In this document: positions 1,455-57,538 of the stretch, one piece after another
Numbering within the stretch: the stretch's first letter is position 1
How the letters are laid out: every line of letters begins with the position of its first letter
Origin: a virus
Virus record (IMG/VR): IMGVR_UViG_3300033047_000016
Strand: one strand, 5' to 3'
DNA: 64,000 bases
Program-made: the position numbers and the translations under genes
Notes under the pieces: model-generated
What the model saw: only the letters and a program-made list of their open reading frames with translations
Told to the model about the DNA's origin: nothing
The model's database searches: none

Positions 1455-1943
1455 ATGGTACACATACGCACCAATCGCGGCTACTGGCGTGATGGTGGGC
1501 ATGGATATTGTAGTGAACCCGCTGACGCGGGCCTGTTTGAACGCACAGACGCTGAAGACACAATAAAAGACCTTGGCCCGGAATTCAACGCCAAGCTCGT
1601 AGCTGTAAAGGAGTCAAAAATGTTTACCCAAGGACAAGAAGTTTACAACAGCACCGGAGAGAAGTTTTTCTTTGACCATGTGCACGGCAACTCCGCTTAC
1701 GTGTATCCAATTGTGGTTGTTCAGAATATTTATGACGGTGGATACGAAGAAGACGAGGTTGCGGCTGAACATCTATTTGAAATACTGATGAAAAACTTGC
1801 AGGCACAACCACCGGTTGCAGCCATTGAAAAATCTATCGTCAATCTACGTGAGGAGAAGGCCGAGGCAAAAAGGCATTACACGAACTTCGGCAAAGTTCT
1901 ATTGTGGCCCGGAGAGAACTGGTGGAGCATGAAAAAGACTTGA
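1455..1943 (+). CDS. hypothetical protein with internal RBS/ATG at 1620; probably frameshifted into 1904-2458
   Basis: ORF track; AAGGAG before ATG at 1620; coiled coil continues in the -1 frame at 1868-1873. Confidence 0.55.
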   Translation: MVHIRTNRGYWRDGGHGYCSEPADAGLFERTDAEDTIKDLGPEFNAKLVAVKESKMFTQGQEVYNSTGEKFFFDHVHGNSAYVYPIVVVQNIYDGGYEEDEVAAEHLFEILMKNLQAQPPVAAIEKSIVNLREEKAEAKRHYTNFGKVLLWPGENWWSMKKT

Positions 1944-2458
1944 CCACATGGGAGAAGGAACACCCCATGTTCAAGGAGATTTTGGCACTGATGCGCGGCG
2001 AAGAAATGTATGCCTTGGCGTTACCGCCGTGGACTCACACATATCACATGCCCACAATTATGCAACAGAATGACATGCGTGTGTTGACGCTTAAAAACGT
2101 CGGTATGGGAACGTTCAAATGGATCGGACATTGGAATAAAGATTCTTGGGGTTCTGATGTTGTAACTGAAGTTGTCGAGTTTTTTGCTACTGAGAAAGAG
2201 TTGAACAAAGCTTTGGAGGTTTTGTGGATTTATGTACTGGAAGCGTTTGAAAAGCGTGAATCAGGCATAAAATTTGGCCCCGGATACGTTACAGGCAAGA
2301 TCGTAAACTACGCACAGTTGGAGAAATGGGTTGACAAGTTCCCATGCCTTGTGATACCAGACAGCGTGGAAGAGGACCGTGCGGCGTATACAGACGCCAA
2401 CAAGAAACGTCTGATTGAAGACGCGCGGGCAAAGTTGGAAGAATTGGAGGGAAAATGA
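1904..2458 (+). CDS. hypothetical protein, probable C-terminal half of the gene starting at 1620
   Basis: Frame is open upstream (KALHELRQSSIVARRELV); no obvious RBS. Confidence 0.55.
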   Translation: MARRELVEHEKDLTTWEKEHPMFKEILALMRGEEMYALALPPWTHTYHMPTIMQQNDMRVLTLKNVGMGTFKWIGHWNKDSWGSDVVTEVVEFFATEKELNKALEVLWIYVLEAFEKRESGIKFGPGYVTGKIVNYAQLEKWVDKFPCLVIPDSVEEDRAAYTDANKKRLIEDARAKLEELEGK

Positions 2459-2748
2459 CTGGCAGCGCACAAGTAACACTGCATCGTAATGTAGGCGGTG
2501 CAGCGGTGATGATTCCTGTTGACTTCGGCGCTGGCATTGAGTATGTCAAGGTTGGGATGCAGATCGTATCCGCGCCGAAGAGTTACAAAGATACCGCAGA
2601 GCACCGCACACGCTTGGAAGAAGCCTTCAAAGCGGCGTTGCATGATCCTGTTGATGTTACCATCACAGGAAAGAGTGCCAAGACACATAGACAACTACTC
2701 CACGTCGCGCTTTCGACGATTGTTGAGTGGAAAATGAAGGGTAAATAA
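2455..2748 (+). CDS. hypothetical protein
   Basis: ATGA overlap with previous gene, GGAGG RBS. Confidence 0.7.
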   Translation: MTGSAQVTLHRNVGGAAVMIPVDFGAGIEYVKVGMQIVSAPKSYKDTAEHRTRLEEAFKAALHDPVDVTITGKSAKTHRQLLHVALSTIVEWKMKGK

Positions 2749-2750
2749 TA

Positions 2751-2954
2751 ATGTGGATTGAATTTGACATTGTAGATTCAGAGGAAAAGATCACAAGGGT
2801 GCCAATCAATATGGACACCATCGTTCTTTTTTCCCCCATCGACGATTCCGCATATCCGAAAGCCAACTCCATTCTATATCCGAGTGGGGGACAGTTTACT
2901 TCACTGCCAGTAACGGCAATTTACGAGACAATCAAGGAGAGTCTAAATGTCTGA
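2751..2954 (+). CDS. hypothetical protein
   Basis: Tightly packed ORF in operon. Confidence 0.65.
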   Translation: MWIEFDIVDSEEKITRVPINMDTIVLFSPIDDSAYPKANSILYPSGGQFTSLPVTAIYETIKESLNV

Positions 2955-3249
2955 TTTTATTACTATCGAAGTGGTTTCGTTCACACCAGAACAACGGGGC
3001 CAACCATCACCAGAGTTCCCACAAGGGGAAGTTGTGGCACCCGCAAAGCACAACACGTTCAACATGTATGTGCGCCCGGAACACGTCGCCGCAACAAATG
3101 TGGTTGAGGAAGGTCCGACGGAGTCCATCAACAGTATCGTGTACTTCTCGTCGGAGTCCGCCTTGAAGCCGGTACTGTCTACCGCAACACCTGAAGACGT
3201 GGTAAGCGTGGTGGATGCAGCGTATGCGGCGTGGAATGCTGATGCGTGA
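2947..3249 (+). CDS. hypothetical protein
   Basis: AAGGAG RBS, overlapping start. Confidence 0.7.
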   Translation: MSDFITIEVVSFTPEQRGQPSPEFPQGEVVAPAKHNTFNMYVRPEHVAATNVVEEGPTESINSIVYFSSESALKPVLSTATPEDVVSVVDAAYAAWNADA

Positions 3250-3373
3250 TATCATCAGCGTATTTGCGCTTATCCTCCTGTTGTCTCTGATTATAGACCC
3301 AGAGGCAACGGGAGAAAACTTACGAGGCACTTGGGAGAGCTTCAACAGCGGATTAAGTGGAGACGACTATTGA
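3242..3373 (+). CDS. small membrane protein (43 aa)
   Basis: Manual translation MRDIISVFALILLLSLIIDPEATG...; fills the gap between genes. Confidence 0.55.
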   Translation: MRDIISVFALILLLSLIIDPEATGENLRGTWESFNSGLSGDDY

Positions 3374-3398
3374 CATAGTCGCCCACCACCCTTATATC
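3364..3398 (+). promoter_or_regulatory. sigma70-like promoter with inverted repeat over the -35
   Basis: TTGACA(3370)-N17-TATATC; CGACTAT-TGAC-ATAGTCG inverted repeat. Confidence 0.7.
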
Positions 3399-3429
3399 AG
3401 TTCCAACAGAAACACAGGAGGAACTGAAA

Positions 3430-3768: not shown

Positions 3769-3785
3769 CGCGAATCAGCTACGGT
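3757..3785 (+). promoter_or_regulatory. sigma70-like promoter with CGAATCA in spacer
   Basis: TTGCAC-N17-TACGGT. Confidence 0.55.
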
Positions 3786-3810
3786 GTACGGGAAATGAAT
3801 GGAGGAACAC

Positions 3811-10051: not shown

Positions 10052-10504
10052 ATGATTTTATACCGGCAACAATGGATCATGCGCAGCGACCTGATCAACA
10101 ACCCGAATGTGCTGTATCTCTTTGGTGACAACACCAAGCGGCGCGGACTAGGTGGACAGGCAAAAGAAATGCGTGGTGAGCAAAACGCCTGCGGCATCGC
10201 CACCAAAGCACTCCCATCCCAAATGGATGATTCCTATTTCAGTGACGACACTTTCTTGGCTAACGCCGAGATAATCTCTGGTGACTTCCGGCGGGCGTTC
10301 GCGCACCGAGAGACCAGAGAAATGATTGTCCTGCCCACCGACGGGCTTGGCACTGGTTTGTCAGAACTGCCGGAACGGGCACCAAAGACAAATGAATTTC
10401 TTTTGTGGTTGATCTACATGCTCGAATCAGGTAAAGAACCTGCATGGAAGCAACTGCTGAATGGAGGTTTCAATGACTACACTAAATGCGAACTGGCTGA
10501 CTAA
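10052..10504 (+). CDS. conserved phage protein, possibly macro-domain-like
   Basis: LFGDN...GLGGQAKEMRGEQNACGIATK and PTDGLGTGL motifs. Confidence 0.6.
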   Translation: MILYRQQWIMRSDLINNPNVLYLFGDNTKRRGLGGQAKEMRGEQNACGIATKALPSQMDDSYFSDDTFLANAEIISGDFRRAFAHRETREMIVLPTDGLGTGLSELPERAPKTNEFLLWLIYMLESGKEPAWKQLLNGGFNDYTKCELAD

Positions 10505-11672
10505 CCCCGCGTTCCTGCGCGTCACTACTGCGCTGGAAGAGGCAGGCTTTGAAGCATACGCCGTTGGTGGTTGTGTGCGGGACGCCCTAACGGGCGTTAC
10601 CGCTAAAGACATAGACGTAGCAACCAACGCACGCCCACATGATCTGCCAAAAATATTTGGCGTGAAACCTTATACCGGACAGAAAGAAACCATGCGTAAT
10701 GGTGATGTAGCCCTGTACCCAACAGGTGTTGCCCATGGCACGTGGACTGTCCGCGTAGGTACGGATGAGGTTGAAGTCACCTCATACCGTAAAGATGTTG
10801 ACACGGACGGGCGCAGGGCGACGGTTGAATTTGCCGACACCATGGAGGTTGACGCACAGCGGCGTGACTTCACCATGAACGCTCTGTACGCAGATCGACA
10901 TGGTAAGGTGTACGACCCAACCGGGGAAGGTCTTGACGATTTGAGCGCGGGAGACGTGCGCTTCGTAGGCAATGCAGAAGAGCGTGTGCAGGAAGACTAC
11001 CTGCGTATCCTGCGGCTGTTCAGGTTTCACGCACGTTTTGGGCGCAAAACTATGGGTATGTGGGAGAGCGCTGCGGCGCTGAAGTATGCGCAAAAGATAC
11101 AGAAAAACGTTTCTGGTGAACGGATATGGGACGAGTTGAAGAAAATAATGGCGCTGCCTCGCCCTTCGGAAGCCCTACGTGAAATGGAAGCCACTGGTGT
11201 TTTCATGGCGCTGTTTGGCACCAGCTTATCACCAACGCTATCAGATATGATGGTGAAAGAACGCCGTTACAATCTCACGCCTGAGTGGTCCAGACGCTAT
11301 TTCGCGGCAACAGGACGTATGGATATACCATTCCCAGCGTCCACTCGCGAACGCAAGCTGGTCGAAGGTACGTTTAAAGCATGCAATGACTACAAGATAT
11401 ATGGGCAGTCGGCTTTGGCGCATAAGTACGGGCAACAGGAAGCGATAACTGCGGCGATGGTGCGTGGCTTGTCCTTTGAACCAAGTGCGGTAGATAGAGG
11501 TACTGTTGCAGAAATGCCACTAAATGCCACAATGTTACTGAATCACGGCTTCACACCCGGACCAGTGATGGGAAAAGCGCTGTCGTTGGCGAAGGAGTAC
11601 TGGTACGCAACCAACCTTCAGGCGTCTGCACAGATGTTGCTCACTGTTGTCACAGAGGAGGTGGAAGAATGA
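10473..11672 (+). CDS. cca: CCA-adding tRNA nucleotidyltransferase (class II)
   Basis: VGGCVRD, DIDVAT, EVTSYR, DAQRRDFTMNAL, EDYLRILRLFRF and SGERIWDEL motifs. Confidence 0.92.
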   Translation: MTTLNANWLTNPAFLRVTTALEEAGFEAYAVGGCVRDALTGVTAKDIDVATNARPHDLPKIFGVKPYTGQKETMRNGDVALYPTGVAHGTWTVRVGTDEVEVTSYRKDVDTDGRRATVEFADTMEVDAQRRDFTMNALYADRHGKVYDPTGEGLDDLSAGDVRFVGNAEERVQEDYLRILRLFRFHARFGRKTMGMWESAAALKYAQKIQKNVSGERIWDELKKIMALPRPSEALREMEATGVFMALFGTSLSPTLSDMMVKERRYNLTPEWSRRYFAATGRMDIPFPASTRERKLVEGTFKACNDYKIYGQSALAHKYGQQEAITAAMVRGLSFEPSAVDRGTVAEMPLNATMLLNHGFTPGPVMGKALSLAKEYWYATNLQASAQMLLTVVTEEVEE

Positions 11673-12183: not shown

Positions 12184-12411
12184 ATGTCTGGACTTGATAC
12201 GCTGCTGAGTATGGTAAGAGCTAGAAATGTGTTCAAAAGCATAGCCAGTGGGCGGCGGTACAGGATGCCGTGTGGAGATAGCAGGCTGGTCGCGAGGATG
12301 CACATGTTTGGAGCAGTCCGACTGGTTTACCCGAAAGATCGGGAAATAACAACGTCGTGGGTCCTGACGGACCTTGGACTTAGTAAATTGGAGTTGATCA
12401 GTGGAATCTGA
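12184..12411 (+). CDS. hypothetical protein (winged-helix-like C-terminus)
   Basis: Packed ORF; WVLTDLG ending. Confidence 0.5.
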   Translation: MSGLDTLLSMVRARNVFKSIASGRRYRMPCGDSRLVARMHMFGAVRLVYPKDREITTSWVLTDLGLSKLELISGI

Positions 12412-13609: not shown

Positions 13610-14006
13610 TACCAGAACACTTTTTGAAATACTTGTGCCGTGCCAGTGGAATGACGGCACGCCGATACGCACACGCCACCACCGTGAGTGGGACAGGCGC
13701 GTCAGAAAGATCACTAATGGACTGACCATAATGCGTCCTGCCAAAGGTCAGTGGATACACAAAGACGAATTATACGAGGATCGCGTTATCCCTGTTCGGT
13801 TGTGCTGCAAGCCTTCCGATATGGTTGAAATTGCTAACATAACCATCGCACACTACGAACAGAAAGCGGTGATGTATTACGAGATTAGCACATGGTGTGT
13901 GATACAAAATGCGACATCAAACCAAGAGAAAAAGTTCACACACGTTCGAAACACCGTAGCAACGGAGATAGCAAATGCCCTTAATTCCGACCATCAATGT
14001 TCGTGA
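13602..14006 (+). CDS. hypothetical protein
   Basis: GGAGG RBS; HHREWD..VR.IT.GLTI..P.KGQW. Confidence 0.7.
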   Translation: MDDTRTLFEILVPCQWNDGTPIRTRHHREWDRRVRKITNGLTIMRPAKGQWIHKDELYEDRVIPVRLCCKPSDMVEIANITIAHYEQKAVMYYEISTWCVIQNATSNQEKKFTHVRNTVATEIANALNSDHQCS

Positions 14007-14298
14007 CGACACGGGAAACAACGAGATATACCTAACCACTGTAGATCAATATAGCACCGCGCACGACGCGGCGTATGATCTGTGGACCAGCGTACACAAC
14101 GCCTCTAAGATTTTTGGTGGCAAGGCTTTACTGCGCACACCAAAGGACGGAGAACATGGTTATCTTGTCCGATGGGAACTAGGGCCTAAGCAATGGGCTG
14201 ACGCCTATGTCGTTTGTGATGGCGCTGACGCGCCCGGTTTTGCATCATCATCTGAATCTGTTGATGGCATGGAAGTACGATTTGTCGATTTAGATTGA
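13975..14298 (+). CDS. hypothetical protein
   Basis: GGAG RBS; VRWELGPKQWA. Confidence 0.7.
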   Translation: MPLIPTINVRDDTGNNEIYLTTVDQYSTAHDAAYDLWTSVHNASKIFGGKALLRTPKDGEHGYLVRWELGPKQWADAYVVCDGADAPGFASSSESVDGMEVRFVDLD

Positions 14299-18000: not shown

Positions 18001-18777
18001 TTTGGACTCCGGGTGACGTGACAAGCCCCATGTATTTTTACCTTTGTCCGCGCCAACCAACCACGCCAGCAATGGCATGTCTGAGCGCTGCCAGTCTTTG
18101 TCTTGCGTGTTGCGGCGGTCGTGTTGCCCGTACATGTTGCCGGTCATGCAGACGAATGGCTTATTCAGTAGCTCCTGCATTTCTTCTGTGCTTTCGCCCA
18201 GAAGTTCTGCGTCATTCATCATCTGAATTTCAGTCAGTTCTGGCTCCGAATCTTCTTCAGGAGATTCCGATTCTCCCTCTTCGTCAGCCACCACAGAATC
18301 CTCCAACGGTACCTGTGTATATACATCGTCAGTGACATCGTCACCCCCTTCTGATTGTGTATCTGCCAGCACATCATCAGGCACCGCGCTGACGCGCGAC
18401 ACTAAGTCTTCGAACAGATGTAATGGAGAATTGTCGCCAAGCGCATAGGACCAACCAAGACCCACAGGAATATCCAACGAGAATACATCTTGGTCAACCT
18501 TATCAGCGCTGACAGGAACGTCAAGGACGTATATTCCAAACACTTTGTCACCTTTAGTGTGCACCAGCGTCGCAAACTCTAAGGGAAGTGTGTCGGAAGC
18601 TACCGCAAACACCTCACCATCAAGTTCAAAGTCGAGTCTCCCATCAGGCATATCCATGATGAGTTGGTCTAAATCCAATGTCAGGTCTGTGATAGTGCGG
18701 TCTTCTACGTCGTCAAATACAACAAATCCGGTTTCGCCTTCACCAAAAATGTGGCTGGCAAGCTCTATGACGTTCAT
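15022..18777 (-). CDS. large primase/helicase-type replication protein
   Basis: AEP-like GLDVDSG, YTSHSH and KFRVILPL; Zn finger CPFEHEH...CKHDAC; P-loop-like PGTGASLL, YFDNI and LCGNN...RR. Confidence 0.75.
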   Translation of the reverse strand: MNVIELASHIFGEGETGFVVFDDVEDRTITDLTLDLDQLIMDMPDGRLDFELDGEVFAVASDTLPLEFATLVHTKGDKVFGIYVLDVPVSADKVDQDVFSLDIPVGLGWSYALGDNSPLHLFEDLVSRVSAVPDDVLADTQSEGGDDVTDDVYTQVPLEDSVVADEEGESESPEEDSEPELTEIQMMNDAELLGESTEEMQELLNKPFVCMTGNMYGQHDRRNTQDKDWQRSDMPLLAWLVGADKGKNTWGLSRHPESKTKEGASIVFADAIGGSRKDAAIETMSSIGLDVDSGASLDVVIEKLKKLGLFAIVYTSHSHGKTKLELKHDDIMRKMKLDATPNRAQVQQYMREHHKDRYDEPFIDSIKVIEFRKQTAEGLRVIIETPPLDKFRVILPLAVPVKLSDLAPTVTGWKEVWADAVTGVAVNMIDVSFDSTSCDVNRLFFTPRHPPGAEWYSAIIQGTPLRFEDIEPYSKATYVKTRGAGEDPFMEGTGGNGADDRDTFYSPKGLNLNRWHTKHKERFMMADVIESFCQDKLRKAGGEKVGSVHLECPFEHEHTTEGGTATMAMNPDANSEHGYWTMFCKHDACQGRDKLEFLKQMLDDAWFDETLLRDDEWNMGEADSPEDVVEEEAGPKTPEQEAAEFTNDSTEAKIRKFIKRHFKLGADLTTQGAINDVLSTQTRLNKTQLRKMWADVRNDHARRQREEAAENNQDTDAIPVVNQWDFSEMVSWGNKRIQDANAERPRLFHYIDDVARIEETADRLPRIRMLTEKQFSAEMNQFTKWHHISAMGDIERRRAVSIPTEVVSQLFSSAHTVYPKLRGLVTTPTFTRDGALITTPGYHESGLFYWNDGVLDVPQVPDVPTEEDVAKAKRLLVEEVFADFPLGGLTRDEIVETALNPASAGVPALTNATAMLLLMFCRDMVDGPTPGHLLTKPSPGTGASLLTDVCSIIANGEVTAAMSIPTNKEEMSKTLLTILSDGSNIIYFDNIGDSVDSGELASALTSPKYKGRQLGKTQSIETEVRAVWVLCGNNVRLSPELVRRLVMVDLNANISSPESRTGWRHGDIRGWIADNRGELVWACLTLIQNWVANGMEGDSSVVLNSYENWSRVMGGILRDAGMGGFLANRDELKERASDGGEDDITLFLDAWWTTFIDKPVLMRSADQSEPDLIQMAIQGDLQLPLRLKRSVDDEPTYDPRNFGKFLGTYEGRVMALSDGTEAQVLRGKRGKSGYYWYLKVTQQAPESNVDL

Positions 18778-18855: not shown

Positions 18856-19029
18856 TTAGCTGCGCGGAAACTTTTTACGCATGTGGCGGCGCGCAGCCAA
18901 AAAGGCACGCCGCTGCTTGCGGTTACCCTCAAGGGGTGGTGTCTTAGACGAAATGGCACGCAACTTATCCCCAACGGGGCGTAGCGGCATATTCATTTCC
19001 TGTAACATCAATTTGTCACTTTTTTGCAT
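18856..19029 (-). CDS. small basic protein (57 aa)
   Basis: Manual translation MQKSDKL...GNRKQRRAFLAARRHMRKKFPRS; TGATG coupling. Confidence 0.6.
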   Translation of the reverse strand: MQKSDKLMLQEMNMPLRPVGDKLRAISSKTPPLEGNRKQRRAFLAARRHMRKKFPRS

Positions 19030-20195
19030 CAGTCGCGTCTTTCTGAGGTAAATCCGTAGTCAAGTACCACCCCAAACCTCGGGATTCCGTCTGGAGTCAA
19101 CTCAAAATATCGAACTGTTGCCCACACAGGGACGCTATCGTCAGTAAAGAGTTCAGCCATGTGTTCGTATGTACCACGAACGCCCGCACCAAAGTGTACA
19201 CCAGAAGGAAGTGACAAAGTGAAACGCTTCACTGCCCCAGCCCAATTACCGTCACCCTCGTGGACGCTGACAACTGGAAACTCTTCTGTGATGAACTCTT
19301 TACGCTTAATCAAGGAGTTTGACCGGCGGTGATCATACGGGGTGTCCAAACGGATCATCTGCCCTTCATACCCTTCCGCAGTCCAGCGACCGTACAAGGC
19401 GTCAAGTTGCTCCATGGAAGTTACTTTGCGAGTCTGGACGATACGCAGGCACCCATCATTAGGTATTTTCAATAGAACATTACCCAATTCGGCCTGACGA
19501 CGACTGAACAAACTATCGGCATCGACGATGTCATATATGTGATACTGCAACAGCGTCTGCGCCTTTTTAAGCTCAGCGTCTGTCAGTGTTTGCTTTCTTA
19601 CCAGAGAAGTTATCGTGTTAAAATCGTCGTGCAAGTCATGGTTGTATAGTTCCCCGTCGAGGACAATATCAGGATTTTCCGCAAATACTGGCTTCAACGC
19701 ATCGAAGATGTGTTTGGCTGAGATTGAGATTGGTTTGCCAGTTCTGGTCCACAACCCGTCGGCCCGCGCAATACAGCGGATTCCATCCAGTTTAGGCTGA
19801 GCGTGCACGCCAGCTTCCACCGACACATGCTTCTGGCGGTCTTCCCATTTGGTGGCCAACATAGGTTTAACAAACGGAACCTCATCAACGGCCCCGATAT
19901 CTTCGAAATAACCGCGAGCGAGTTTCTTCTTATATAGGGCGACAATCTCAGCACGCGCCTGCCCAACCGAAGTCGTTTCGTTCTTCTTTCCAACGTTCTT
20001 TGGAACACCAACGGTCCAACCAGAGTTGGTTTCCTTACCATCCAGAACCCCAGACACGACGCGATGGGCACCAGTAAGGCCACCACCTTTTACGACTTCT
20101 CCGAATTCCATTTTCCACGTGCGTACTTCACCTTTGACGCCGCGCTTATATAGAACAGCACTCCCAACAATATCACCGAACATTGATTTCTCCAT
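19029..20195 (-). CDS. lig: ATP-dependent DNA ligase
   Basis: KPMLA, QPKLDGIRC, LDGELY, YEGQMIR, LIKRKEF and PRFG motifs. Confidence 0.93.
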   Translation of the reverse strand: MEKSMFGDIVGSAVLYKRGVKGEVRTWKMEFGEVVKGGGLTGAHRVVSGVLDGKETNSGWTVGVPKNVGKKNETTSVGQARAEIVALYKKKLARGYFEDIGAVDEVPFVKPMLATKWEDRQKHVSVEAGVHAQPKLDGIRCIARADGLWTRTGKPISISAKHIFDALKPVFAENPDIVLDGELYNHDLHDDFNTITSLVRKQTLTDAELKKAQTLLQYHIYDIVDADSLFSRRQAELGNVLLKIPNDGCLRIVQTRKVTSMEQLDALYGRWTAEGYEGQMIRLDTPYDHRRSNSLIKRKEFITEEFPVVSVHEGDGNWAGAVKRFTLSLPSGVHFGAGVRGTYEHMAELFTDDSVPVWATVRYFELTPDGIPRFGVVLDYGFTSERRD

Positions 20196-23316: not shown

Positions 23317-23345
23317 GGTATACACCCGCTGACGCGGGCTGTCAA
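23317..23345 (-). promoter_or_regulatory. sigma70-like promoter of the NAD operon; spacer holds the CCCGC-GTCA-GCGGG hairpin
   Basis: TTGACA-N17-TATACC on minus strand. Confidence 0.7.
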
Positions 23346-23832: not shown

Positions 23833-24326
23833 GTGTTGACCACCAGCACTTTGTCAAACCCTTCCGCCTCTGTGGGCACCACCATGCAGTTGCGCATAGA
23901 AAGGTCGATGTGGTCCGGGATGGTCTTACCCGGACGCCCCAACAAGCGCGTCTGCCGCGTGGTTTCGTCCGTCTGCACAAAAATGCAGAGAGTGAAATAT
24001 GTCGCAGGAATCTGAGACAGCACACCCTTCCGCTTCTTCTCAGTCAGGTTGGTCTGATCCCAGACAATCGACGCACCATCCTTCAGTGCTTGCTTAAACG
24101 CCGCATGAACTGCGGAGGTGGCAGGCTTAATCTCCGCAGCAAACACGTCGTTATATGTCAACCCACGCCACCCAGCGGCGTCCTCGATCAAGTCGTCCGT
24201 AGACAGATGTACACCATCACCCTCGAATTGGGCACGAATTGTGCTTTTACCAGACGCTGGGAGTCCGCTCAACATAACGAAGAACGGCCCCGAATGTTGT
24301 ATCCCGCTCAAAAAACCATCGTTCAT
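23829..24326 (-). CDS. polynucleotide kinase-like P-loop protein (AAA_33)
   Basis: LSGLPASGKST, STDD and VWDQTNL...R motifs. Confidence 0.85.
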   Translation of the reverse strand: MNDGFLSGIQHSGPFFVMLSGLPASGKSTIRAQFEGDGVHLSTDDLIEDAAGWRGLTYNDVFAAEIKPATSAVHAAFKQALKDGASIVWDQTNLTEKKRKGVLSQIPATYFTLCIFVQTDETTRQTRLLGRPGKTIPDHIDLSMRNCMVVPTEAEGFDKVLVVNT

Positions 24327-34252: not shown

Positions 34253-34773
34253 TGTTCGAAGTGACAGTTACCCGTGACATGGTCGGGGAGTCATTCGTAA
34301 AGGCGCAAGAAATTGGTGTGTTGCACAACTCCATAGAAAAGGGGGAGGGCAATTTAATTGGCTGCATCGGCGAGTTTGTTGTTGCGCAGGCGCTTGACGC
34401 TGACGTAGATAACACGTTTGATTACGATCTTGTTAAAGACGGAAAGACCGTTGATGTAAAGACCAAGAAGTCTGGACCGAAACCAAAAGGTAATTACGAG
34501 GCGTCGGTTGCAGACTTCAACACCGCACAAAAATGTGACTATTATTTCTTTGTGAGGGTCACTCCGCGCATGCACAAAGCGTATGTACTGGGGTTTTATC
34601 CGAAGACAGCGTTCTACGCCGACAGTAAGTTTCACACGAAGGGAGAATACGACTTCTCCAACAACTTCAAATTCCACGCCGATTGCCACAACATACGACA
34701 TGATTTGTTGCTTGGCTGGGATGCAAAAACACCGGAAGAGCTAAGAAAAGCATGGCAGCATTTGACCGCATAA
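34252..34773 (+). CDS. PD-(D/E)XK-like nuclease
   Basis: GCIGE...DYDL.....VDVKTK. Confidence 0.6.
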   Translation: MFEVTVTRDMVGESFVKAQEIGVLHNSIEKGEGNLIGCIGEFVVAQALDADVDNTFDYDLVKDGKTVDVKTKKSGPKPKGNYEASVADFNTAQKCDYYFFVRVTPRMHKAYVLGFYPKTAFYADSKFHTKGEYDFSNNFKFHADCHNIRHDLLLGWDAKTPEELRKAWQHLTA

Positions 34774-37646
34774 ACGGTGAATTCACCACACGATTTGCAG
34801 ATGGACGATCAGGGTGTAAAAAGCCGGATCGTTTCATGTTTAAAAGGAATGGATGGTCGTGGGACGTCAATACGAAGGGGTGGACCACACCAGACATTGA
34901 GAACGCACGTCCACTCATAAAGCACGCGGTCGGTGCCGCCAAAGAGCATCTGGTAGTGGCTGAGCGCGTGCGCGAGGCTATTGTAGCGGAATCTTGGGCC
35001 GAGGATACCGAAACAATCTTTCCGGCCCCTGACGGGGAGCATTACCTACCCTTTCAAAAGGCTGGGATAGAGTACGCCATAAAACGCAAACACACTCTGA
35101 TCGCTGACCCACCCGGTCTAGGTAAATCGCAACCAGTAGATGAGCCTGTGTTGACCCCGAATGGGTGGACAACCATGGGAGAGTTGCGTGTTGGGGATTT
35201 TGTGGTTGGGGTGGACGGGAGAAAAACCAAAGTAGTTGGAGTTTTTCCGCAAGGTATTTTAGATACATATCAGGTAAAGTTTTCTGACGGTGCGTCCACT
35301 TTCTGTAGCAATTCACACTTATGGGCTGTGGCAGATTCCAATAGACGTAAACGCACAAACGATTTTACTGTAAAACCTCTATCTGAAATATCTGATCGTG
35401 GATTGAAAGAAGGTACACGCAAAAAGTGGACTGTACCGGTTATGGGTCCTGTGGAATTTCCCGAGAGAAAGTTTGTGATACCCCCATATACATTGGGGGT
35501 GCTGCTGGGTGATGGGAGTTTACATCAATCCAGCCCATGTGTGTCAATCGCAAATTTTGAGTCAGAAATAAAAGATAGACTGGAAGCAGAGATTCTGCCG
35601 GGATACCGACTACACAGCGCCCGAAAAGCAGATAAAACTAATCGCTGTAAGCAGTATACAATAAGTCGCCCACGCTGTGGCTCATCTCCATCAACATATA
35701 TGACCGAATTACGGCGATTAAATCTGGCAGTTAAGGGTGATAAAAAAAGAATTCCAGCGGAATATTTAACAGCCTCAGCAGAACAACGGCTTGAGCTTTT
35801 GCGGGGTCTCATGGATTCTGATGGAAGTGCACGCCAAAACAGAATAACGTTCCATTCGTGCAATCCTTATCTGGCGGCGGACGTACAGCAGCTTGTGTGG
35901 TCTTTAGGAGGCATTGCCAGTGAGCGTACCTACGTGCGACACGATGGAAAGTCCGATGAAACGAGAATCAACGTAACGCTCGACACATGCCCGTTTCACT
36001 TGACTAGAAAAGCCACCGAATGGTCCCCAAATCGCAGGCACCACCGTGTCCGAAGGTTTATTGACTCTATTACCAAGGTAGGGAAGAGTCCTCACGTATG
36101 TATTTCTGTAGCTGCGGCTGACAACTTATACGTCACTAGAGATTATGTTGTGACACACAATACAATTCAGGCAATCGGAGTGCACAATGCAACAAAAGCC
36201 AAACGTGTTTTAGTGGTGTGCCCAGCGTCATTGAAAGTGAACTGGAAGCGGGAATGGGAAAAATGGGATGTGCATGGCCTTTCCGTAGGCATTGCACACT
36301 CAAAAACCAGAACAAAAACAGTAAAAGAAATAGTCGAAGGCGTGGAAGAAAAGTGGGTAAAGCGCTGGACTGAGCACGTGTGGCCTGACACAGATGTTGT
36401 GATGATAAATTACGACATGCTGGATGCGTTTAACGACGCCGTAAAAGATGTGTCGTGGGACTTGCTGATTTGTGATGAGGCGCATCTTTTAAAAACAAAG
36501 ACGGCACTGCGCACATTATGTGTGTTCGGCGGGGCACGAAAGGGTGCCAGAAAAAATGGAATACAAACCAGAAAGCCAAAGACCTATACTGCAATTGAAG
36601 CAACCAAGACACTGTTTCTGACCGGAACACCTATTCTATCCAAGCCGGTTGAGCTATGGAACCTTATTAGAATCTGTGATCGTCCCGGTCTCGGTAAGAA
36701 CTATGATGATTTTGTCTTCGACTTCTGCGGTGCATATTATGAAGGTGACCATTTAAATGTTATGGGAGCATCCAATTCCGACGAATTGAATCGGCTGATG
36801 CGTGAGAGATTTATGGTACGCAGAGACAAGCGCTCTGTATTAAAAGAATTGCCAGACAAGACTCGCGAATTGATAATGTTGCCGCAGGATAAATTAGAGA
36901 AGCCAGTTAAAAAAGAACTGTCTCGAATGGAATCTGCGCTGAATGTGTACGAAAGTATAATTGGAATAAGCGAAGAAGACCGGTCATTCCGATACATAAA
37001 GGCCATTGAATCTCTCACAGACAAGCTTGCAAAAGCACTCGAAGAACAAGACAGCGAAACTCCTAATTGGGATTTAGCTGTAAAGACAATGGAAGAACCT
37101 GATCAAATTTTGTTCACAGAAATAAGTCTGGCACGAGAAGAAGTTGCAATTGCAAAAGTTGGAATGGTGGTAGAACACATCAAGAAGCTGGTAGATTCCG
37201 AGGAGCCAGTGATTTGTTTTGCGTATCACAAGTCTGTGATATCGACAATAAAAGAACGCTTGGAGAAGGTAGGCATAAGCGTTGGTGTGGTCACAGGATC
37301 AGTGGCATCAAACAAGCGGCAGCAGGTCGTTGACGACTTTCAATCAGGTTCGTACGATGTGATCCTTGGAAACATAATCGCCATGGGTGTTGGCTTCACG
37401 CTAACGCGTGCCAGTTTCGTTGTGTTCGCTGAGTTGGATTGGGTGCCAGCACTCATCGAACAGGCTGAAGACAGGGCGTGGCGGTACGGCCAACTTAATG
37501 CTGTACTTGTCCAGCATCTTGTGGTAGATGGGTCCATCGAAGCACGGATGGCGATTGCGCTGTTGGACAAAATGGGAGTAATACATGACACACTGGATTA
37601 TCGCGATACCCCTTATCCTTATGACGACGATGTCAGCGATGGCTGA
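34752..37646 (+). CDS. SNF2/SF2 helicase containing an intein
   Basis: LIADPPGLGK|T, VCPAS, DEAH, LTGTP, GVGFTL and QAEDRAWRYGQ motifs. Confidence 0.93.
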   Translation: MAAFDRINGEFTTRFADGRSGCKKPDRFMFKRNGWSWDVNTKGWTTPDIENARPLIKHAVGAAKEHLVVAERVREAIVAESWAEDTETIFPAPDGEHYLPFQKAGIEYAIKRKHTLIADPPGLGKSQPVDEPVLTPNGWTTMGELRVGDFVVGVDGRKTKVVGVFPQGILDTYQVKFSDGASTFCSNSHLWAVADSNRRKRTNDFTVKPLSEISDRGLKEGTRKKWTVPVMGPVEFPERKFVIPPYTLGVLLGDGSLHQSSPCVSIANFESEIKDRLEAEILPGYRLHSARKADKTNRCKQYTISRPRCGSSPSTYMTELRRLNLAVKGDKKRIPAEYLTASAEQRLELLRGLMDSDGSARQNRITFHSCNPYLAADVQQLVWSLGGIASERTYVRHDGKSDETRINVTLDTCPFHLTRKATEWSPNRRHHRVRRFIDSITKVGKSPHVCISVAAADNLYVTRDYVVTHNTIQAIGVHNATKAKRVLVVCPASLKVNWKREWEKWDVHGLSVGIAHSKTRTKTVKEIVEGVEEKWVKRWTEHVWPDTDVVMINYDMLDAFNDAVKDVSWDLLICDEAHLLKTKTALRTLCVFGGARKGARKNGIQTRKPKTYTAIEATKTLFLTGTPILSKPVELWNLIRICDRPGLGKNYDDFVFDFCGAYYEGDHLNVMGASNSDELNRLMRERFMVRRDKRSVLKELPDKTRELIMLPQDKLEKPVKKELSRMESALNVYESIIGISEEDRSFRYIKAIESLTDKLAKALEEQDSETPNWDLAVKTMEEPDQILFTEISLAREEVAIAKVGMVVEHIKKLVDSEEPVICFAYHKSVISTIKERLEKVGISVGVVTGSVASNKRQQVVDDFQSGSYDVILGNIIAMGVGFTLTRASFVVFAELDWVPALIEQAEDRAWRYGQLNAVLVQHLVVDGSIEARMAIALLDKMGVIHDTLDYRDTPYPYDDDVSDG
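35127..36161 (+). mobile_element. intein with LAGLIDADG endonuclease (345 aa) in the helicase Walker A
   Basis: SQPVDEPVLTPNGW...HLW...LGVLLGDG...LRGLMDSDGS...VCISV...VTHN|T. Confidence 0.92.
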
Positions 37647-46462: not shown

Positions 46463-46662
46463 TACAAGAAGAAGACGTTGAATATATTCGCAAGAATACA
46501 GACATGCTGGGAACGGTATTAAGTGTTGACTCCGATGATTTGGCTGTATACATTCAAGACCTAAGTGAACTGGTACTGAAAATGGCCGCACAAATTAAAG
46601 AACAGCAAGCGAAACTAACATCGCTTGAGAACCGCCTATGGATGGCAATGAACGAAGGTTAA
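46459..46662 (+). CDS. hypothetical coiled-coil protein
   Basis: ATGA overlap with previous gene. Confidence 0.6.
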   Translation: MIQEEDVEYIRKNTDMLGTVLSVDSDDLAVYIQDLSELVLKMAAQIKEQQAKLTSLENRLWMAMNEG

Positions 46663-46664
46663 CT

Positions 46665-47348
46665 ATGACGACACCTATTGTAGTGGCATTCACTGGGAAG
46701 CGCGGTTCTGGTAAATCCGAAGCGGCGCGAGTTCTGGTAGAGAAACTTGGTTTCCGTGAACTTAAATTTGCGGACCAATTGAAGAACATGCTTCGCGCCA
46801 TGTACCAGACATGTGGCGTTGATGTTAACACGGTCGAACGCAAGATCGAGGGCGACCTAAAAGAGGTTCCGTGTGAATGGCTTATGGGGAAGACTCCACG
46901 CTATGCCATGCAAACACTTGGCACTGAATGGCGCAACATGATCAACACACAGTTGTGGTCAGAAATGTTCAGGAAGGCTGTTCTGTCTGGTAATCTTGGA
47001 GACAGGATCGTTTGTTCTGATTATCGCTTCGAGCACGAAGGGGTGATTCTAGATGAGCTTGGTGCCGTCAAATATCGCATCGTTCGCCCGACCGCTGACG
47101 CGGTCTCAGATAAAGCATCACAGCACGCATCTGAAACGGAGCTTGATAATATCCCTACAGACTTCGACATCATAAATGACAGAAGTATCGGTGATCTACA
47201 AGTATCCGTGCTGGAACTAGTCATGGATGGAATGAAAATTAGTGGTATCAATGTGTTTCCAACACGTTACCCAGAGGGTGGGTGCATGTCCAAACCACTA
47301 GACGAAGACTGGTTTAAACACAATCATCAAACAGTTCGGATAGACTGA
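46665..47348 (+). CDS. deoxynucleoside monophosphate kinase
   Basis: GKRGSGKS, FADQLK, PRYAMQTLGTEW, DYRF..E and HASE motifs. Confidence 0.92.
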   Translation: MTTPIVVAFTGKRGSGKSEAARVLVEKLGFRELKFADQLKNMLRAMYQTCGVDVNTVERKIEGDLKEVPCEWLMGKTPRYAMQTLGTEWRNMINTQLWSEMFRKAVLSGNLGDRIVCSDYRFEHEGVILDELGAVKYRIVRPTADAVSDKASQHASETELDNIPTDFDIINDRSIGDLQVSVLELVMDGMKISGINVFPTRYPEGGCMSKPLDEDWFKHNHQTVRID

Positions 47349-47824: not shown

Positions 47825-48068
47825 TGCGGAATTCAGCATAGCCGGAGAGCTTAGAGAGTGGCGTAAGCACGTATGCCGGTCTGATGGAACATACGTGCTA
47901 TGGGGCTTCATTTACGACGACGTTCGTAACAGATTTCCAGATGGTCAGTGGGTGCACACCTCCCGCATTGATAATATTGTTGGGGACTTGGCCTACACAT
48001 TTACTGGATCGGTCTACCGATTGGTCGGAGATAAGGCAGGAGAGGACGTTAACATATGGGCATCCTGA
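47817..48068 (+). CDS. conserved small phage protein
   Basis: WG.IY.D...RF.DG...HTS...T.S.YRL. Confidence 0.7.
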   Translation: MNDAEFSIAGELREWRKHVCRSDGTYVLWGFIYDDVRNRFPDGQWVHTSRIDNIVGDLAYTFTGSVYRLVGDKAGEDVNIWAS

Positions 48069-48406
48069 AATTAGCTGCACTGTTGTTTGTTGGGGCATGC
48101 GCGTCAGCGCCTGCCTACGCCGGAAATGATCAATTGATACACTTCATCTGTGAGACACCAGACGAAGTTATTCCAGTGATCCACATGGTTGAAGGTGGTG
48201 ACCTTGTATATGGAATCACCGATCTACCCGGATCGTGTCAGTGGGCCAGAGACGTATATCCAGAAATGCACGCCCGCGTGGGTTCGATTGGAAAGTTATT
48301 TGAAAGCGTCCGTCTGGATAATGGCGACCGTGTGTGGGTCGGAGAAGTTACCATGCCTAATGGCAAGGTCCATTACTCGGCAGGATATTACAATTTAGTG
48401 TCTTAG
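48056..48406 (+). CDS. putative exported protein
   Basis: Signal-peptide-like N-terminus. Confidence 0.6.
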   Translation: MGILKLAALLFVGACASAPAYAGNDQLIHFICETPDEVIPVIHMVEGGDLVYGITDLPGSCQWARDVYPEMHARVGSIGKLFESVRLDNGDRVWVGEVTMPNGKVHYSAGYYNLVS

Positions 48407-53417: not shown

Positions 53418-54163
53418 TGTCTGCCTATAAATGGCATAAAGCGGCAATCGCAGACGAAGCGTCCCGATACAGGAATCGGGGTGCCTTCCGCATGGGGAGT
53501 AAACAGGCGTACGAAGCAGCCCGTCGCCAAAATATATTGGAAGAAATGTGTTCACACATGGCACCACCACAATATAAACGAAATGTAGATGATGTAATTA
53601 CTGCCGCTAAACCGTATAATACAATGTCTGAATTCATTGCAGAATGCCCCAAAGATTACGACAGTGCTAGGAAAAATGGTTGGCTTGCTGTTATACGGGT
53701 GGGAATGGAACCAGCCACATTACCTTGGACCGAAAATAGAATTAGAGAATCGGCGTTTACCTGTGAATCTAGAATGGAATTTAAACATGAATATTATGGG
53801 GGATACCAAGCCGCCCAACGCTTAAATATTTTAGATAGCGTCTGCGCTCACATGATTAAAAAACCAAAGGTCCATGTGTATATGTACGCTGATACTGTCA
53901 ATGCTTATGTAGGTATATCTGGATACCCCGATTCCTATAGACATCAAGATCATAAAAGAAGAAACGATGCAGTCGGAGAATTAACGCGTTCAGTTAGCTT
54001 AGTAATATTGACTAAAGATAAAATTCCGTGGGCGGAAGCCCGTGAATTGGAAAAGAATACAATAATACAAATGGCAAAAACACATAGAATTCTTAATATC
54101 CAAGATAATCCACAGAGGAAAGGTCATGATAAGTTTTACGCTGTACAAGCAAGTAGATGTTGA
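53417..54163 (+). mobile_element. free-standing GIY-YIG-type endonuclease with N-terminal helical repeats
   Basis: Three R..F...Y.AA.R...L...C.HM-type repeats; VYMY...AYVGIS...RHQDH...A.ELE...LN; AT-rich. Confidence 0.7.
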
Positions 54164-54386
54164 ATGCAAATGGTGTGACAAATCTGTCACACTAATCCAC
54201 TCATATGGCTTGGAGTGCGACGTGCGCCCGCTGACGCGGGAGAAGCTGTTAGTGTGGGCAGAGAAAGCCCACATGAAGACAGTGCCAATCATTTATCACG
54301 GTATGCGCCTCGTCGGTGGGTTCGACCAGTTGGAAAGTTACATCGACAATATAAGAGGCCAAAGATGGCCGGTAAACCGCCGCTGA
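54126..54386 (+). CDS. glutaredoxin-like protein
   Basis: CKWC, TVPII and VGGFDQL motifs. Confidence 0.85.
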   Translation: MISFTLYKQVDVECKWCDKSVTLIHSYGLECDVRPLTREKLLVWAEKAHMKTVPIIYHGMRLVGGFDQLESYIDNIRGQRWPVNRR

Positions 54387-54458
54387 CGCGGCTTATGGGT
54401 CATGTATGGCCCATTACACCGTCATATGGTTCACGTGTGACGCAATAAGGAGACTATC

Positions 54459-55019: not shown

Positions 55020-55022
55020 AAT

Positions 55023-55050
55023 AGGCCCGCGTCAGCGGGCCTTTTCTTTT
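55023..55050 (+). terminator. intrinsic terminator at the convergence point
   Basis: AGGCCCGC-GTCA-GCGGGCCT followed by TTTCTTTT. Confidence 0.8.
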
Positions 55051-55656: not shown

Positions 55657-55669
55657 AGCCGCCTCGTGA

Positions 55670-55939
55670 TTAATCTTTGGATTTAAGCATATTCCCGATG
55701 CCGCCATTGTAGTCAATGACAGAACCTGTAACATATGCTGCAACAGTTGTCAACACCAACGTTGATGCTGCGCCCATGTACAATTCCATAACAGGTCCAG
55801 TTACAATCCAACCGAAACCAGACATGGCAGCAAAAATGGCCATGGTACCAAGACAGAATAACGTCACACGAGATATGAATCGGTGGCGTCTTGCCCGGTC
55901 AACCGGTTGCTGAATTGATATTTCTGCTATTTCTGTCAC
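55670..55939 (-). CDS. putative holin
   Basis: Two TM segments within the lysis cluster. Confidence 0.55.
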   Translation of the reverse strand: MTEIAEISIQQPVDRARRHRFISRVTLFCLGTMAIFAAMSGFGWIVTGPVMELYMGAASTLVLTTVAAYVTGSVIDYNGGIGNMLKSKD

Positions 55940-56421
55940 GCCTTTGGCCTCGGTGGTTTCTTCGTTTTTGGTGGGCGCAGTTTGCTTGGATTACATCGCT
56001 GCCCCGGAGCACCGTTTTCAGGAACACCCCTCAACGCTAATTCCATACGGATCATTGCACCCTCTAATAGCGAGGATATCACGCTTACGTCTATCGAGTC
56101 CACCTTTGCATCGGCGTTCATTTTGTCGATACTGTCGGTGCCTGTTTCTTCTGCCACTAACAGAAGTCCGGTTGCCTGTGACGTCGCTTGAAGTGTATCG
56201 GTAGCCTTCTTCACGAATTGGTTATATTCTACAATGTGCGGCCACACGGCTCCACAAGGATGCGCGGCATGCACAGATTTTAATGTTTCATCTGCCGCAC
56301 CTAACGCCGCACGGGCATAATCGTATGCTGCAACTTGAAGTGTTGCCTTGACGTTTATCAAGGTCATGCGAATTGCCGCTACGTCTTTTTCACTGCTTCC
56401 GAGTATTGTGTTGATGTCCAT
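55936..56421 (-). CDS. hypothetical protein
   Basis: ORF in the lysis cluster; start taken at MDINTILG. Confidence 0.55.
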   Translation of the reverse strand: MDINTILGSSEKDVAAIRMTLINVKATLQVAAYDYARAALGAADETLKSVHAAHPCGAVWPHIVEYNQFVKKATDTLQATSQATGLLLVAEETGTDSIDKMNADAKVDSIDVSVISSLLEGAMIRMELALRGVPENGAPGQRCNPSKLRPPKTKKPPRPKA

Positions 56422-56720
56422 GATTGCCTTTCCAGCTTTTCTACGCGGTGAAGAGATTCCGCACAATGATCGTATTCTTTGAACCAAAATATGGCGTCGG
56501 TAATTATTTCCAGTGCCTTCCAGACGAAACGGTACTTATGGCGCTCCCGTACATGGAAGCCGATGCAGGAAGATAATGTTGGCCCCCACGCTCCACCCAT
56601 AATCATGAAGTGAACCCATTGCGACACTACTGCGATTATGTCTTCCCAAGGAATTCCTTGTTGTCGGACCCGCGCTACAGTTATGCCAAAAAGAATTATA
56701 AGGAGCGCAAGCCAGATCAT
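56379..56720 (-). CDS. membrane protein
   Basis: N-terminal TM; TLSS...D.IFW....HC.ES. Confidence 0.6.
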   Translation of the reverse strand: MIWLALLIILFGITVARVRQQGIPWEDIIAVVSQWVHFMIMGGAWGPTLSSCIGFHVRERHKYRFVWKALEIITDAIFWFKEYDHCAESLHRVEKLERQSWTSTQYSEAVKKT

Positions 56721-56731
56721 TTAAGTCTCCG

Positions 56732-57538
56732 TCAGATTTTTCTGAGGTAGGCTTCGTGCACCCACCCATCATCATTTCCATTCAAGTCTATGCGACGCCA
56801 ACTGCCCCTCGCATCCACTACTCCAACAATATCTCCACGATGCACAGAATTTATTACACTGAAATTGGTTCCCGGCCCTTGGCGAACGTTTAAGGAACCT
56901 GCGGTGACCTGATAAGCGTCTGTAGTGTCCTCACGAGGCTCAGAGAGGGTCAACAGGCGCTTGTAGCGGTCCATTGGAAACATGGGTCCCGGATCAGTCT
57001 TCCAGCCGCGTGTGTCAATCTCTTCATGCGATACTATGTCAATGATACCATACTCAGAGATAATGTCACGCGTCAAAGCTTCAACGGCTTCAAGTTGTTT
57101 GTCTGGATATTCTGGCCACCAGAATGTACCACTACCTACACGAGAATTTGTGTACGCCCCCATCCTTGGCATGTCAGATTCTTTACGGCGGATATTGTCG
57201 CGGAAATATGTTGTCCCACTTTTTCTGAACCATCCGGCGTTGACAATCTCGATCCCGATGGAATACTGATTCAGACCATTATACCCCATGTGCCGTGATG
57301 GTCCAGCATGCCACGCTGCAACGTTATACGGAACGTGTTGGTACACGGTACCATCAAGATCAACTGTCAACTGCGCGCTGACGCGTGACGACTTAGATTC
57401 AAAAGTTGACACGGCACTTGCTGCCGTGAACCCAGCGGTATAGTGCATGACAATAAACTTCGGAACAATTGGTCCACTGAAATTTGGCGATGGCTTCTGA
57501 ATCGCGTACGTTACTTTGTGATCTTTTATATATGACAT
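56732..57538 (-). CDS. endolysin: N-acetylmuramoyl-L-alanine amidase (Amidase_2) plus SH3
   Basis: VMHYTA, AWHAG.S, SIGIEIVN, HEEI...KTDPGP; LNVRQGPG...GWV. Confidence 0.93.
   Translation of the reverse strand: MSYIKDHKVTYAIQKPSPNFSGPIVPKFIVMHYTAGFTAASAVSTFESKSSRVSAQLTVDLDGTVYQHVPYNVAAWHAGPSRHMGYNGLNQYSIGIEIVNAGWFRKSGTTYFRDNIRRKESDMPRMGAYTNSRVGSGTFWWPEYPDKQLEAVEALTRDIISEYGIIDIVSHEEIDTRGWKTDPGPMFPMDRYKRLLTLSEPREDTTDAYQVTAGSLNVRQGPGTNFSVINSVHRGDIVGVVDARGSWRRIDLNGNDDGWVHEAYLRKI

Follow-up and report, generated by a model that had tools for sequence, protein, structure and literature searches.

An arm-oriented TGAC hairpin dispersed through DSS3phi8-like roseophages is a candidate signal for their primase-helicase

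We analysed a 64,000-nucleotide stretch of the IMG/VR virus record IMGVR_UViG_3300033047_000016 (hereafter the window, whose coordinates are used unless stated otherwise) and found that a small hairpin with a CGC/GCG stem and a TGAC loop recurs through it and through the genomes of related phages. The flanks of the hairpin vary from copy to copy and stay paired, its orientation follows the chromosome arm and not the genes in which it lies, and it accompanies a primase-helicase of these phages also in bacterial islands. Because of this polarity, the specificity for the phages, the co-occurrence with the primase-helicase and the precedent of the GCGNNAGC mini-hairpins, the best explanation seems to be a cognate single-stranded DNA (ssDNA) signal of the phage primase-helicase, used for priming or loading, and we give this reading about even chances of being right.

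An exact search for the core, CGCTGACGCG, returned ten copies in the window, eight on the plus strand and two on the minus strand. A preliminary description, made by a model from the letters of the window, had listed ten copies, and all its coordinates and strands proved exact on recount (Table 1). Dinucleotide-preserving shuffles of the window contained 0.16 copies on average and never more than one. The enrichment also holds in the codon-preserving shuffle which that description had proposed: seven copies lie in called open reading frames (ORFs), while synonymous-codon shuffling within these ORFs gave an expectation of 0.28 (maximum 2 in 200 trials). The coding copies are read in several frames and on both strands (A-D-A, L-T-R, R-V-S-A, A-S-A), and a peptide motif is therefore excluded. 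The flanking pairs had likewise been described correctly. The stems of eight of the ten copies are lengthened by at least two further Watson-Crick pairs; the copy at 57376 has one G-T pair and the copy at 48100 one further pair only. The element is a hairpin of at least 14 nt, NN-CGC-TGAC-GCG-N'N'. The complement of the core is CGCGTCAGCG, which includes GCGTCAGC.

Judged from its sequence, the window is part of a roseophage resembling DSS3phi8, with a genome of about 145-150 kb. When 9 kb of the window were compared with GenBank phages by megablast, no match appeared, and the relatives were reached by protein search: the family A DNA polymerase of the window is 64-67% identical to those of DSS3_MAL1, MD18, DSS3P8, vB_RpoS-V10, RpAliso and RcXuper. 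We analysed five of these, namely DSS3_MAL1 (hereafter MAL1), Phaeobacter phage MD18, Roseobacter phage DSS3P8 (DSS3phi8), RpAliso and Rhodobacter phage RcXuper, and left out vB_RpoS-V10. The relatives are siphoviruses with genomes of 146-150 kb which infect Rhodobacteraceae and have a gene order in common with the window. A 1251-aa protein of the window, described below, is encoded on a 144 kb contig, and DNA of the window is present in runs labelled as seawater and subsurface metagenomes.

Exact core copies number 31, 23, 23, 29 and 28 in the five relatives, against 0-2 copies of a control word, the core read backwards. The core is absent from phiCbK and occurs twice in a Microcystis phage. 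In 81 Rhodobacteraceae genomes it reaches about 1.6 times the control, or about 10 copies per Mb as against about 190 per Mb in the phages, so that its density in the phages is roughly 20 times that in genomes of the host family. The enrichment belongs to the phage group and not to the host, and we rejected a host-type terminator or repetitive extragenic palindromic (REP) element because the motif is not enriched in the host family. A 14-mer scan of bacterial genomes had scattered GC-rich genomes among the matches listed. Within coding sequence, MAL1 carries 23 copies and RcXuper 18, compared with 1.6 and 1.65 in synonymous-codon shuffles. The phage genomes have 56-62% GC; the window has 49% and still holds its ten copies in 64 kb.

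That the fold is under selection, and not a word, is seen in the flanks. We counted pairs around the 144 core copies of six genomes, the window and the five relatives. The first flanking pair is Watson-Crick in 135 of the 144 copies (C-G 102, G-C 26, A-T 6) and the second in 119 of these 135 (G-C 54, C-G 52, A-T 9, T-A 4), whereas pairs further out are Watson-Crick in about 55%. At the second pair G-C and C-G exchange almost evenly, and G/G or C/C combinations are rare at the outer stem positions. The flanks extend the stem by true covariation. On this ground we rejected a double-stranded DNA (dsDNA) operator or dimer site, since the half-sites agree by pairing and not by sequence, which a dimeric dsDNA-binding protein would not force. 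We also counted G-T against A-C mismatches in the extended stems in order to find the strand that folds, and there was no asymmetry.

The same is apparent at orthologous sites. One intergenic pair shows a compensatory double change (GGGCCGC/GCGGCCC in MAL1, GGGCGGC/GCCGCCC in DSS3P8), and another set of orthologous intergenic hairpins reads CGGGCCGC in MAL1, CGAGCGGC in DSS3P8 and CGGCCCGC in RpAliso; loop swaps within T-N-A-C are also seen at such sites. The hairpin at 18385-18398 has orthologous copies in relatives L201 and L202 with compensatory stem changes. At nt 380 of the primase-helicase gene the stem is CGCGC in the window, CCCGC in L201 and ACCGC in L202, and pairing is retained partly via non-synonymous changes (Ala to Gly, Ser to Asn). 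The hairpin at 14221-14234 is found at the orthologous site in MD18 and MAL1. In general, orthologous sites retain the intergenic copies. The coding copies are mostly confined to single lineages, and the copy number per genome is maintained.

The loop follows a rule as well. Among hairpins with at least 5 bp and 4-nt loops, 178 of 1669 have the TGAC/GTCA loop. When the closing pair is C-G, the counts are 169 for TGAC, 49 for TAAC, 27 for TCAC and 15 for TTAC, with an average loop at about 6. We defined a wider family by a T-N-A-C loop, a C-G closing pair and a stem of at least four pairs; in the window it has 22 members on the plus and 3 on the minus strand. T-A-closed hairpins, in which TTGACA sits in a palindrome (e.g. 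3364-3381), resemble -35 boxes and were left out. On the strand opposite TGAC the element is GCGTCAGC, a mini-hairpin of the GCGNNAGC kind, and the unusually stable fold may belong to d(GCGTCAGC) or to d(GCTGACGC). Of the whole GCGNNAGC class only NN=TC is enriched (234 against 45 for the control); therefore the specific loop bases matter and not stability alone, which points to a protein reader. The nearest-neighbour DNA energy is about -5.5 kcal/mol, from parameters that do not model the mini-hairpin fold.

Regarding orientation, sense copies outnumber antisense copies overall (110:68). The most informative region on polarity is the block of nicotinamide adenine dinucleotide (NAD)-salvage, ligase and primase genes (15.0-28.6 kb in the window), because it is transcribed against both its neighbours. 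Across the six genomes, TGAC hairpins in this block are antisense by 11:1 and T-N-A-C variants by 6:1. We examined further 24-kb stretches around the homologous gene in nine metagenomic relatives with 40-62% protein identity. In the five with the gene order of the window, the block is again antisense by 11:1. In the four with an alternative order the block is co-oriented with its neighbours, and here the same genes hold sense copies by 13:3, while a small reversed block is antisense by 2:0. Taken together, the reversed gene blocks contain 26 TGAC hairpins, and 24 of these have the strand of the neighbouring genes. Since the copies are antisense when the block is reversed and sense when it is co-oriented, orientation is set by the chromosome arm, not by the genes, and has been restored where the genes were rearranged. 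The flip in polarity lies close to the divergent early region, at 124-132 kb in the coordinates of the relatives. We rejected a model of two diametrically opposite flips, as the second boundary is ill-defined, and GC3/AT3 skew as a proxy for fork direction was uninformative, AT3 skew following the expression class of the gene blocks.

The two gene orders are a feature of the phage group in themselves. In the window, as in L200, L201, L202, L205 and L206, the NAD-salvage/ligase/primase block runs opposite to the early and replication genes. L198, L199, L203 and L204 have the other order, with the block in the direction of those genes and only a small integrase/PNKP block reversed.

The candidate reader is the 1251-aa protein encoded within this block. 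Sequence searches of Pfam and PDB yielded nothing for it. The PHROG that it matches is labelled DNA polymerase/primase; in the ESM Atlas, the C-terminal half is similar to primase-helicase/DUF5906 clusters and the N-terminal half to clusters of RepB_primase, Prim-Pol, PriCT_2 and D5_N. Forty homologues have in common a DIDSG motif and a Cys/His cluster. The AlphaFold model of residues 1-720 has a predicted local distance difference test score (pLDDT) of 85, and its best PDB fold matches are the archaeo-eukaryotic primase (AEP) domain of cyanophage S-2L PrimPol (E 7e-4), CAPP Prim-Pol and the AEP domains of poxvirus D5/E5. The PHROG, cluster, motif and fold evidence together indicate that the protein, as modelled, is an AEP primase fused to a D5-like helicase. 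The preliminary description had called this gene a primase, and fold search and cluster matches agree, adding the helicase. No primase gene was reported in the DSS3phi8 paper. In RcXuper the corresponding primase-helicase is gp133.

Homologues of the primase-helicase are also present in small integrative islands of Rhodobacteraceae. Silicimonas algicola (CP034588) has an 8.4-kb island with a 45%-identical homologue and 8-9 core copies, or 14 T-N-A-C hairpins, in both orientations; five of the hairpins fall within about 320 nt of non-coding DNA, and none is found in the flanking chromosome. With 0.2% of the 4.3-Mb genome, this island holds 8 of its 46 flank-restricted (S-CGCTGACGCG-S) copies. 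In Thalassococcus lentus hairpin copies lie on both sides of the homologue gene. All seven Rhodobacteraceae loci with an N-terminal homologue hold 4-12 hairpins per 20 kb, as against 0, 0 and 1 in three loci where the helicase relative is a different one. The hairpin thus appears to travel with the primase-helicase family, in the sense of an association.

The integrase-bearing islands (L207 from S. algicola, L208/L229 from T. lentus, and L230-L235) combine a primase-helicase homologue of about 1090 aa with clusters of the TGAC hairpin. They may be satellite-like replicons which share the replication signal of the phages.

Table 1. Hairpins of the T-N-A-C family in the window and the gene of the candidate reader; core start is the first position of an exact core copy
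Feature	Coordinates	Strand	Core start	Context
CCCGC-TGAC-GCGGG	1518-1531	+	1520	within + ORF 1383-1943, reads P-A-D-A-G
GGCGC-TGAC-GCGCC	14221-14234	+	14223	within + ORF 13975-14298
CGCGC-TGAC-GCGCG	18385-18398	+	18387	antisense in primase-helicase gene, codons S-R-V-S-A
CCCGC-TGAC-GCGGG	23325-23338	+	23327	intergenic; occupies 17-nt spacer of minus-strand TTGACA/TATACC promoter 23345-23317
GACCGC-TGAC-GCGGTC	47090-47105	+	47093	sense, within + ORF 46638-47348
GCGC-TGAC-GCGC, 4 bp	48099-48110	-	48100	minority strand; antisense within + ORF 48056-48406
CCCGC-TGAC-GCGGG	54227-54240	+	54229	sense, within + ORF 54126-54386
GCCGC-TGAC-GCGGC	54379-54392	+	54381	loop TGA (54384-54386) is the stop codon of ORF 54126-54386
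AGGCCCGC-TGAC-GCGGGCCT, 8 bp	55023-55042	-	55028	convergent gene junction, T-runs on both strands
CGCGC-TGAC-GCGTG, one G-T pair	57374-57387	+	57376	antisense within - ORF 56732-57538
Weaker TGAC copy	14196-14205	+		near hairpin 14221-14234
ACCTC-TGAC-GAGGT, other stem	1367-1380	+		family member
GGTCC-TGAC-GGACC, other stem	12360-12373	+		family member
CCCC-TGAC-GGGG	35026-35037	+		family member within SNF2 helicase gene
CGCGC-TTAC-GCGCG, loop variant	29658-29671	+		T-N-A-C family
Further T-N-A-C variants	loops at 388, 4424, 6369, 10261, 10588, 12125, 37402	+		
GTACGCCCCGCC-TAAC-GGCGGGGTGTAC, 12 bp	376-403	+		longest member with TAAC loop
Predicted fusion of AEP primase and D5/DUF5906-like superfamily 3 (SF3) helicase, 1251 aa	15022-18777	-		DIDSG motif, Zn-type Cys/His cluster

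The preliminary description had proposed a signal defined by structure plus sequence, read on ssDNA or cruciform DNA, with the primase as a candidate reader and with nicking, recombination, packaging and stoperator sites as further options. The part that names ssDNA and the primase is now the best supported, through the orientation independent of transcription, the GCGNNAGC class and the co-occurrence with the primase; cruciform, packaging and stoperator functions gained no support. Stems of 5 bp are too short for cruciform extrusion, and this variant was rejected. As a signal for the phage primase-helicase, the hairpin would work as follows. The duplex would be unwound by the phage's own AEP primase and D5-like helicase, and the excluded strand would fold into a small stable hairpin to which single-stranded DNA-binding protein (SSB) binds poorly. 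The primase part would read the loop bases and the C-G/G-C closing pairs and start a primer there, or the helicase would load there. The hairpins would then be signals of the single-strand initiation (ssi) type spread over the whole replicated arm, and their single orientation would put them on the strand that becomes single-stranded. Two features expected of ssi-type signals were observed, the strand-specific placement independent of transcription (24/26 in reversed blocks) and, by association, an encoded primase with a co-occurring signal.

Several observations weigh against this reading. Many intergenic copies lie 5-20 nt past stop codons, as RNA elements do, and the loop rule T-N-A-C is the same as the UNAC rule of RNA, with the T of G-T-N-A being unexplained by the mini-hairpin fold. 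The polarity is not uniform: the structural-gene third has 3-4 times fewer copies with little polarity (hairpins 14:13, core copies 15:7), and some conserved intergenic copies, e.g. upstream of recD, have the minority orientation. A two-change-point test fixes only the flip near 124-132 kb; in single genomes its significance is no more than moderate, and in DSS3P8 it is absent. Distant metagenomic relatives (contigs of 57.7 kb and 32.5 kb) have one core copy each. As for the islands, four loci matched solely via the helicase half hold 2-5 hairpins, and the loci were found by searching with the primase, which leaves room for other shared genes. Finally, we infer the identity of the reader, the strand that is read and the fork direction, as well as binding and priming by the candidate primase. 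A bolder version, according to which the D5-like AEP primase-helicase starts or loads lagging-strand synthesis only at one specific mini-hairpin, so that a 150-kb phage wrote about 40 oriented copies into its genes even at amino-acid cost and the islands use hairpin clusters as origin, is a tentative idea that we consider less likely than not.

The main rival, which we consider rather unlikely, is that the element acts as RNA, as a hairpin of early and middle transcripts whose UNAC tetraloop is GNRA-like, serving as a terminator or attenuator stem, as a stabiliser of 3' or 5' ends, or as a site bound by an RNA-binding or antitermination protein of the phage. Loops of the UNAC type, which imitate the GNRA fold, are present in phi21 boxB (PMC5311481, PMC12550061), and the loop of the element varies exactly as U-N-A-C. 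The placement of many copies fits this too: about 34% are intergenic or at gene edges as against about 13% of non-coding DNA, the copies with long stems (7-10 bp) lie 5-20 nt directly past stop codons or in the rIIA 5' leader, several copies, including a few in the relatives, have U-tracts, and the overall excess is on the sense strand. The density is also highest in the early region and lowest in late genes, and a 5 bp stem is predicted to fold as RNA with about -8 kcal/mol. Some intergenic copies do have secondary uses. The promoter-spacer and terminator copies noted in the preliminary description are both real: the promoter lies upstream of the nadM-Nudix gene and its arrangement with the hairpin is kept in L201, and the hairpin at 55023-55042 doubles as a bidirectional terminator stem, given the T-runs on both strands; the third such use is the placement in a 5' leader. 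However, the terminator hairpin is the only one of the ten window copies with T-runs, so the stem followed by a U-tract that characterises intrinsic terminators is not a property of the family, and the promoter-spacer copy is upstream of its transcription start. Most copies are in ORFs, where ribosomes would melt a 5-bp stem. In reversed blocks the ratio of sense to antisense is 2:24, at about 18 times the chance density, which would require long antisense read-through RNAs, and in the islands up to five copies, of both orientations, are crowded into about 320 nt of non-coding DNA. No Rfam family was matched in the window.

Two other readings have lower probability. The hairpin could be recognised by an enzyme of the HUH, Ssn or HNH type that acts on ssDNA (a nuclease, nickase or recombinase), or it could be a polar signal like Chi which protects or directs the processing of replication intermediates or virion DNA nicks. 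Its strand-specific polarity is like that of Chi, of FtsK-orienting polar sequences (KOPS) or of T5-type nicks, and the phages encode exonucleases and HNH or other endonucleases. We nevertheless find this improbable, as Chi and KOPS are linear words without a pairing requirement, a signal read by the host should be enriched in the host family more than the 81 genomes show, and no co-varying nuclease gene was found, unlike the primase-helicase. A selfish or neutral repeat, i.e. a mini-element of the REP kind or like a miniature inverted-repeat transposable element (MITE), or a mutational by-product, in either case with no function for the phage, seems very improbable. It has a parallel in the metagenome-assembled genome (MAG) OZ244186.1, where 215 copies of the hairpin form a fixed part of a GTAG-tagged repeat of about 120 nt. 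The phage unit is only 14 nt without shared flanks, lies in a variety of reading frames, and comes about through point substitutions, some of them compensatory, and not through insertion; its copy number is held at 23-31 over the GC range of the relatives and at ten in the 49%-GC window. Extragenic position, GTAG tag and shared flanks, the features of REP and bacterial interspersed mosaic elements (BIME), are seen together only in that MAG, whereas seven of the ten window copies are in ORFs.

Among known systems, mini-hairpins of the GCGNNAGC/GCGNAGC type bind SSB poorly and include the G4 priming site, ssiA, which is recognised by the AEP primase RepB', and the N4 hairpin promoters (PMC13037366; PMC8567376). 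The closest resemblance is to ssiA/ssiB of RSF1010, which are also short ssDNA hairpins with a mini-hairpin motif read by an AEP primase of the same element (PMC8567376; PMC13037366), the reader in our case being a candidate; in the islands, moreover, inverted copies on both strands adjoin the primase gene. RSF1010 differs in having two signals of 40 nt at one origin, used in leading-strand mode only; the phages have 25-40 copies, each of 14 nt, which extend over about 150 kb and are polar by arm. The phage loop is GTCA/TGAC and not GAA, and the phage primase is fused to a D5-like helicase and has PrimPol, not RepB', as best fold match. The hairpin of the complementary-strand origin of phage G4 (GCGAAAGC), primed by DnaG, is likewise a mini-hairpin of the GCGNNAGC class and a priming site on SSB-coated ssDNA (PMC13037366), but it is a single site in an ssDNA phage with the host primase as reader. 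The promoters of the N4 virion RNA polymerase share a 5-7-bp stem, a small purine-containing loop and reading on extruded ssDNA in a dsDNA phage (PMC13037366). They differ in number, as there are three, in their 3-nt loops and in having an RNA polymerase as reader. For DSS3phi8 no RNA polymerase of the phage is mentioned, and none is annotated in the stretch of RcXuper that was examined.

The intercistronic C(UUCG)G hairpins of T4 and lambdoid boxB are sense-strand RNA elements between genes. The phage element resembles them as one specific stable tetraloop hairpin that recurs in a genome, with intergenic copies after stop codons; unlike them, it is mostly intragenic and its orientation ignores gene direction. 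The 17-bp palindrome TGTTCGGNNNCCGAACA of Cluster O mycobacteriophages has more than 30 dyad-symmetric copies per genome, in and between genes, but its arms are invariant like those of a dsDNA protein site, with no covariation and no meaningful orientation (PMC4351075). Of published dyad motifs dispersed in a phage genome it comes closest. Chi and KOPS are linear words; host enzymes read them, and the host genome is enriched in them. They are likewise over-represented, strand-polar and written into coding DNA via codon choice; the phage element differs in its base-paired structure and in the lack of enrichment in the host family. We found no description of the hairpin in the literature on these phages, including the DSS3phi8 and MD18 papers, and a literature search for the literal core sequence returned only primers.

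Primase sites in dsDNA phages are thought of as trinucleotides, and structured ssi signals are, to our knowledge, known only as one or two copies at origins of plasmids or ssDNA phages. A base-paired, strand-polar signal present dozens of times in coding DNA would be a new way of marking the template for the replisome. If so, sequence would reveal the direction of replication in an abundant group of marine phages, and the signal would constrain codon choice and even protein sequence. Should the bolder version hold, phages and satellite-like islands would have a new primase-signal pair in common, and the hairpins would form a structured 'priming code', the first to span a genome. The primase-carrying Rhodobacteraceae islands offer a simple experimental handle in the form of a minimal replicon made of primase gene plus hairpins; they may also be satellites that use the replication signal of a helper phage. 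Culturable pairs are DSS3phi8 with Ruegeria pomeroyi, MD18 with Phaeobacter inhibens and RcXuper with Rhodobacter capsulatus.

Several further observations were made on these genomes. The T-A-closed hairpins, with loop and closing pair forming TTGACA in a 6-7-bp palindrome, occur at 3364-3381 (plus strand) in the window and at 16845 and 135847 in RcXuper, and are probably a different, promoter-associated class. In MAL1 (MN602268.1; 59892-59960 and 80412-80480, minus strand) an intercistronic cassette of about 55 nt, consisting of the hairpin followed by TG(T/C)CCTCCCGGAAAGAA..GACA-ATG, recurs almost verbatim after nrdZ and after rIIB; by its sequence it resembles a shuffled regulatory cassette. 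The SNF2-family helicase gene of the window (34752-37646, plus strand) encodes 964 aa as against about 620 aa in the relatives and has a LAGLIDADG_3 domain at residues 344-404, which suggests an intein or an inserted homing endonuclease. The window also has an RNA-repair-like set (10461-11672, 24323-25585, 33085-34089 and 19029-20195) comprising a CCA-adding enzyme, two RNA ligases and a DNA ligase, to which the relatives add polynucleotide kinases and a Thg1-like gene. In the alphaproteobacterial MAG OZ244186.1 (L126/G009, 1.9 Mb), the 215 copies have the form C(C/T)CCGCTGACGCGGGG (control 9) and are distributed evenly on both strands, each as a fixed module of the multi-hairpin repeat, and the composite repeat looks REP/BIME-like. 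A related genome, G013, has 97 copies.

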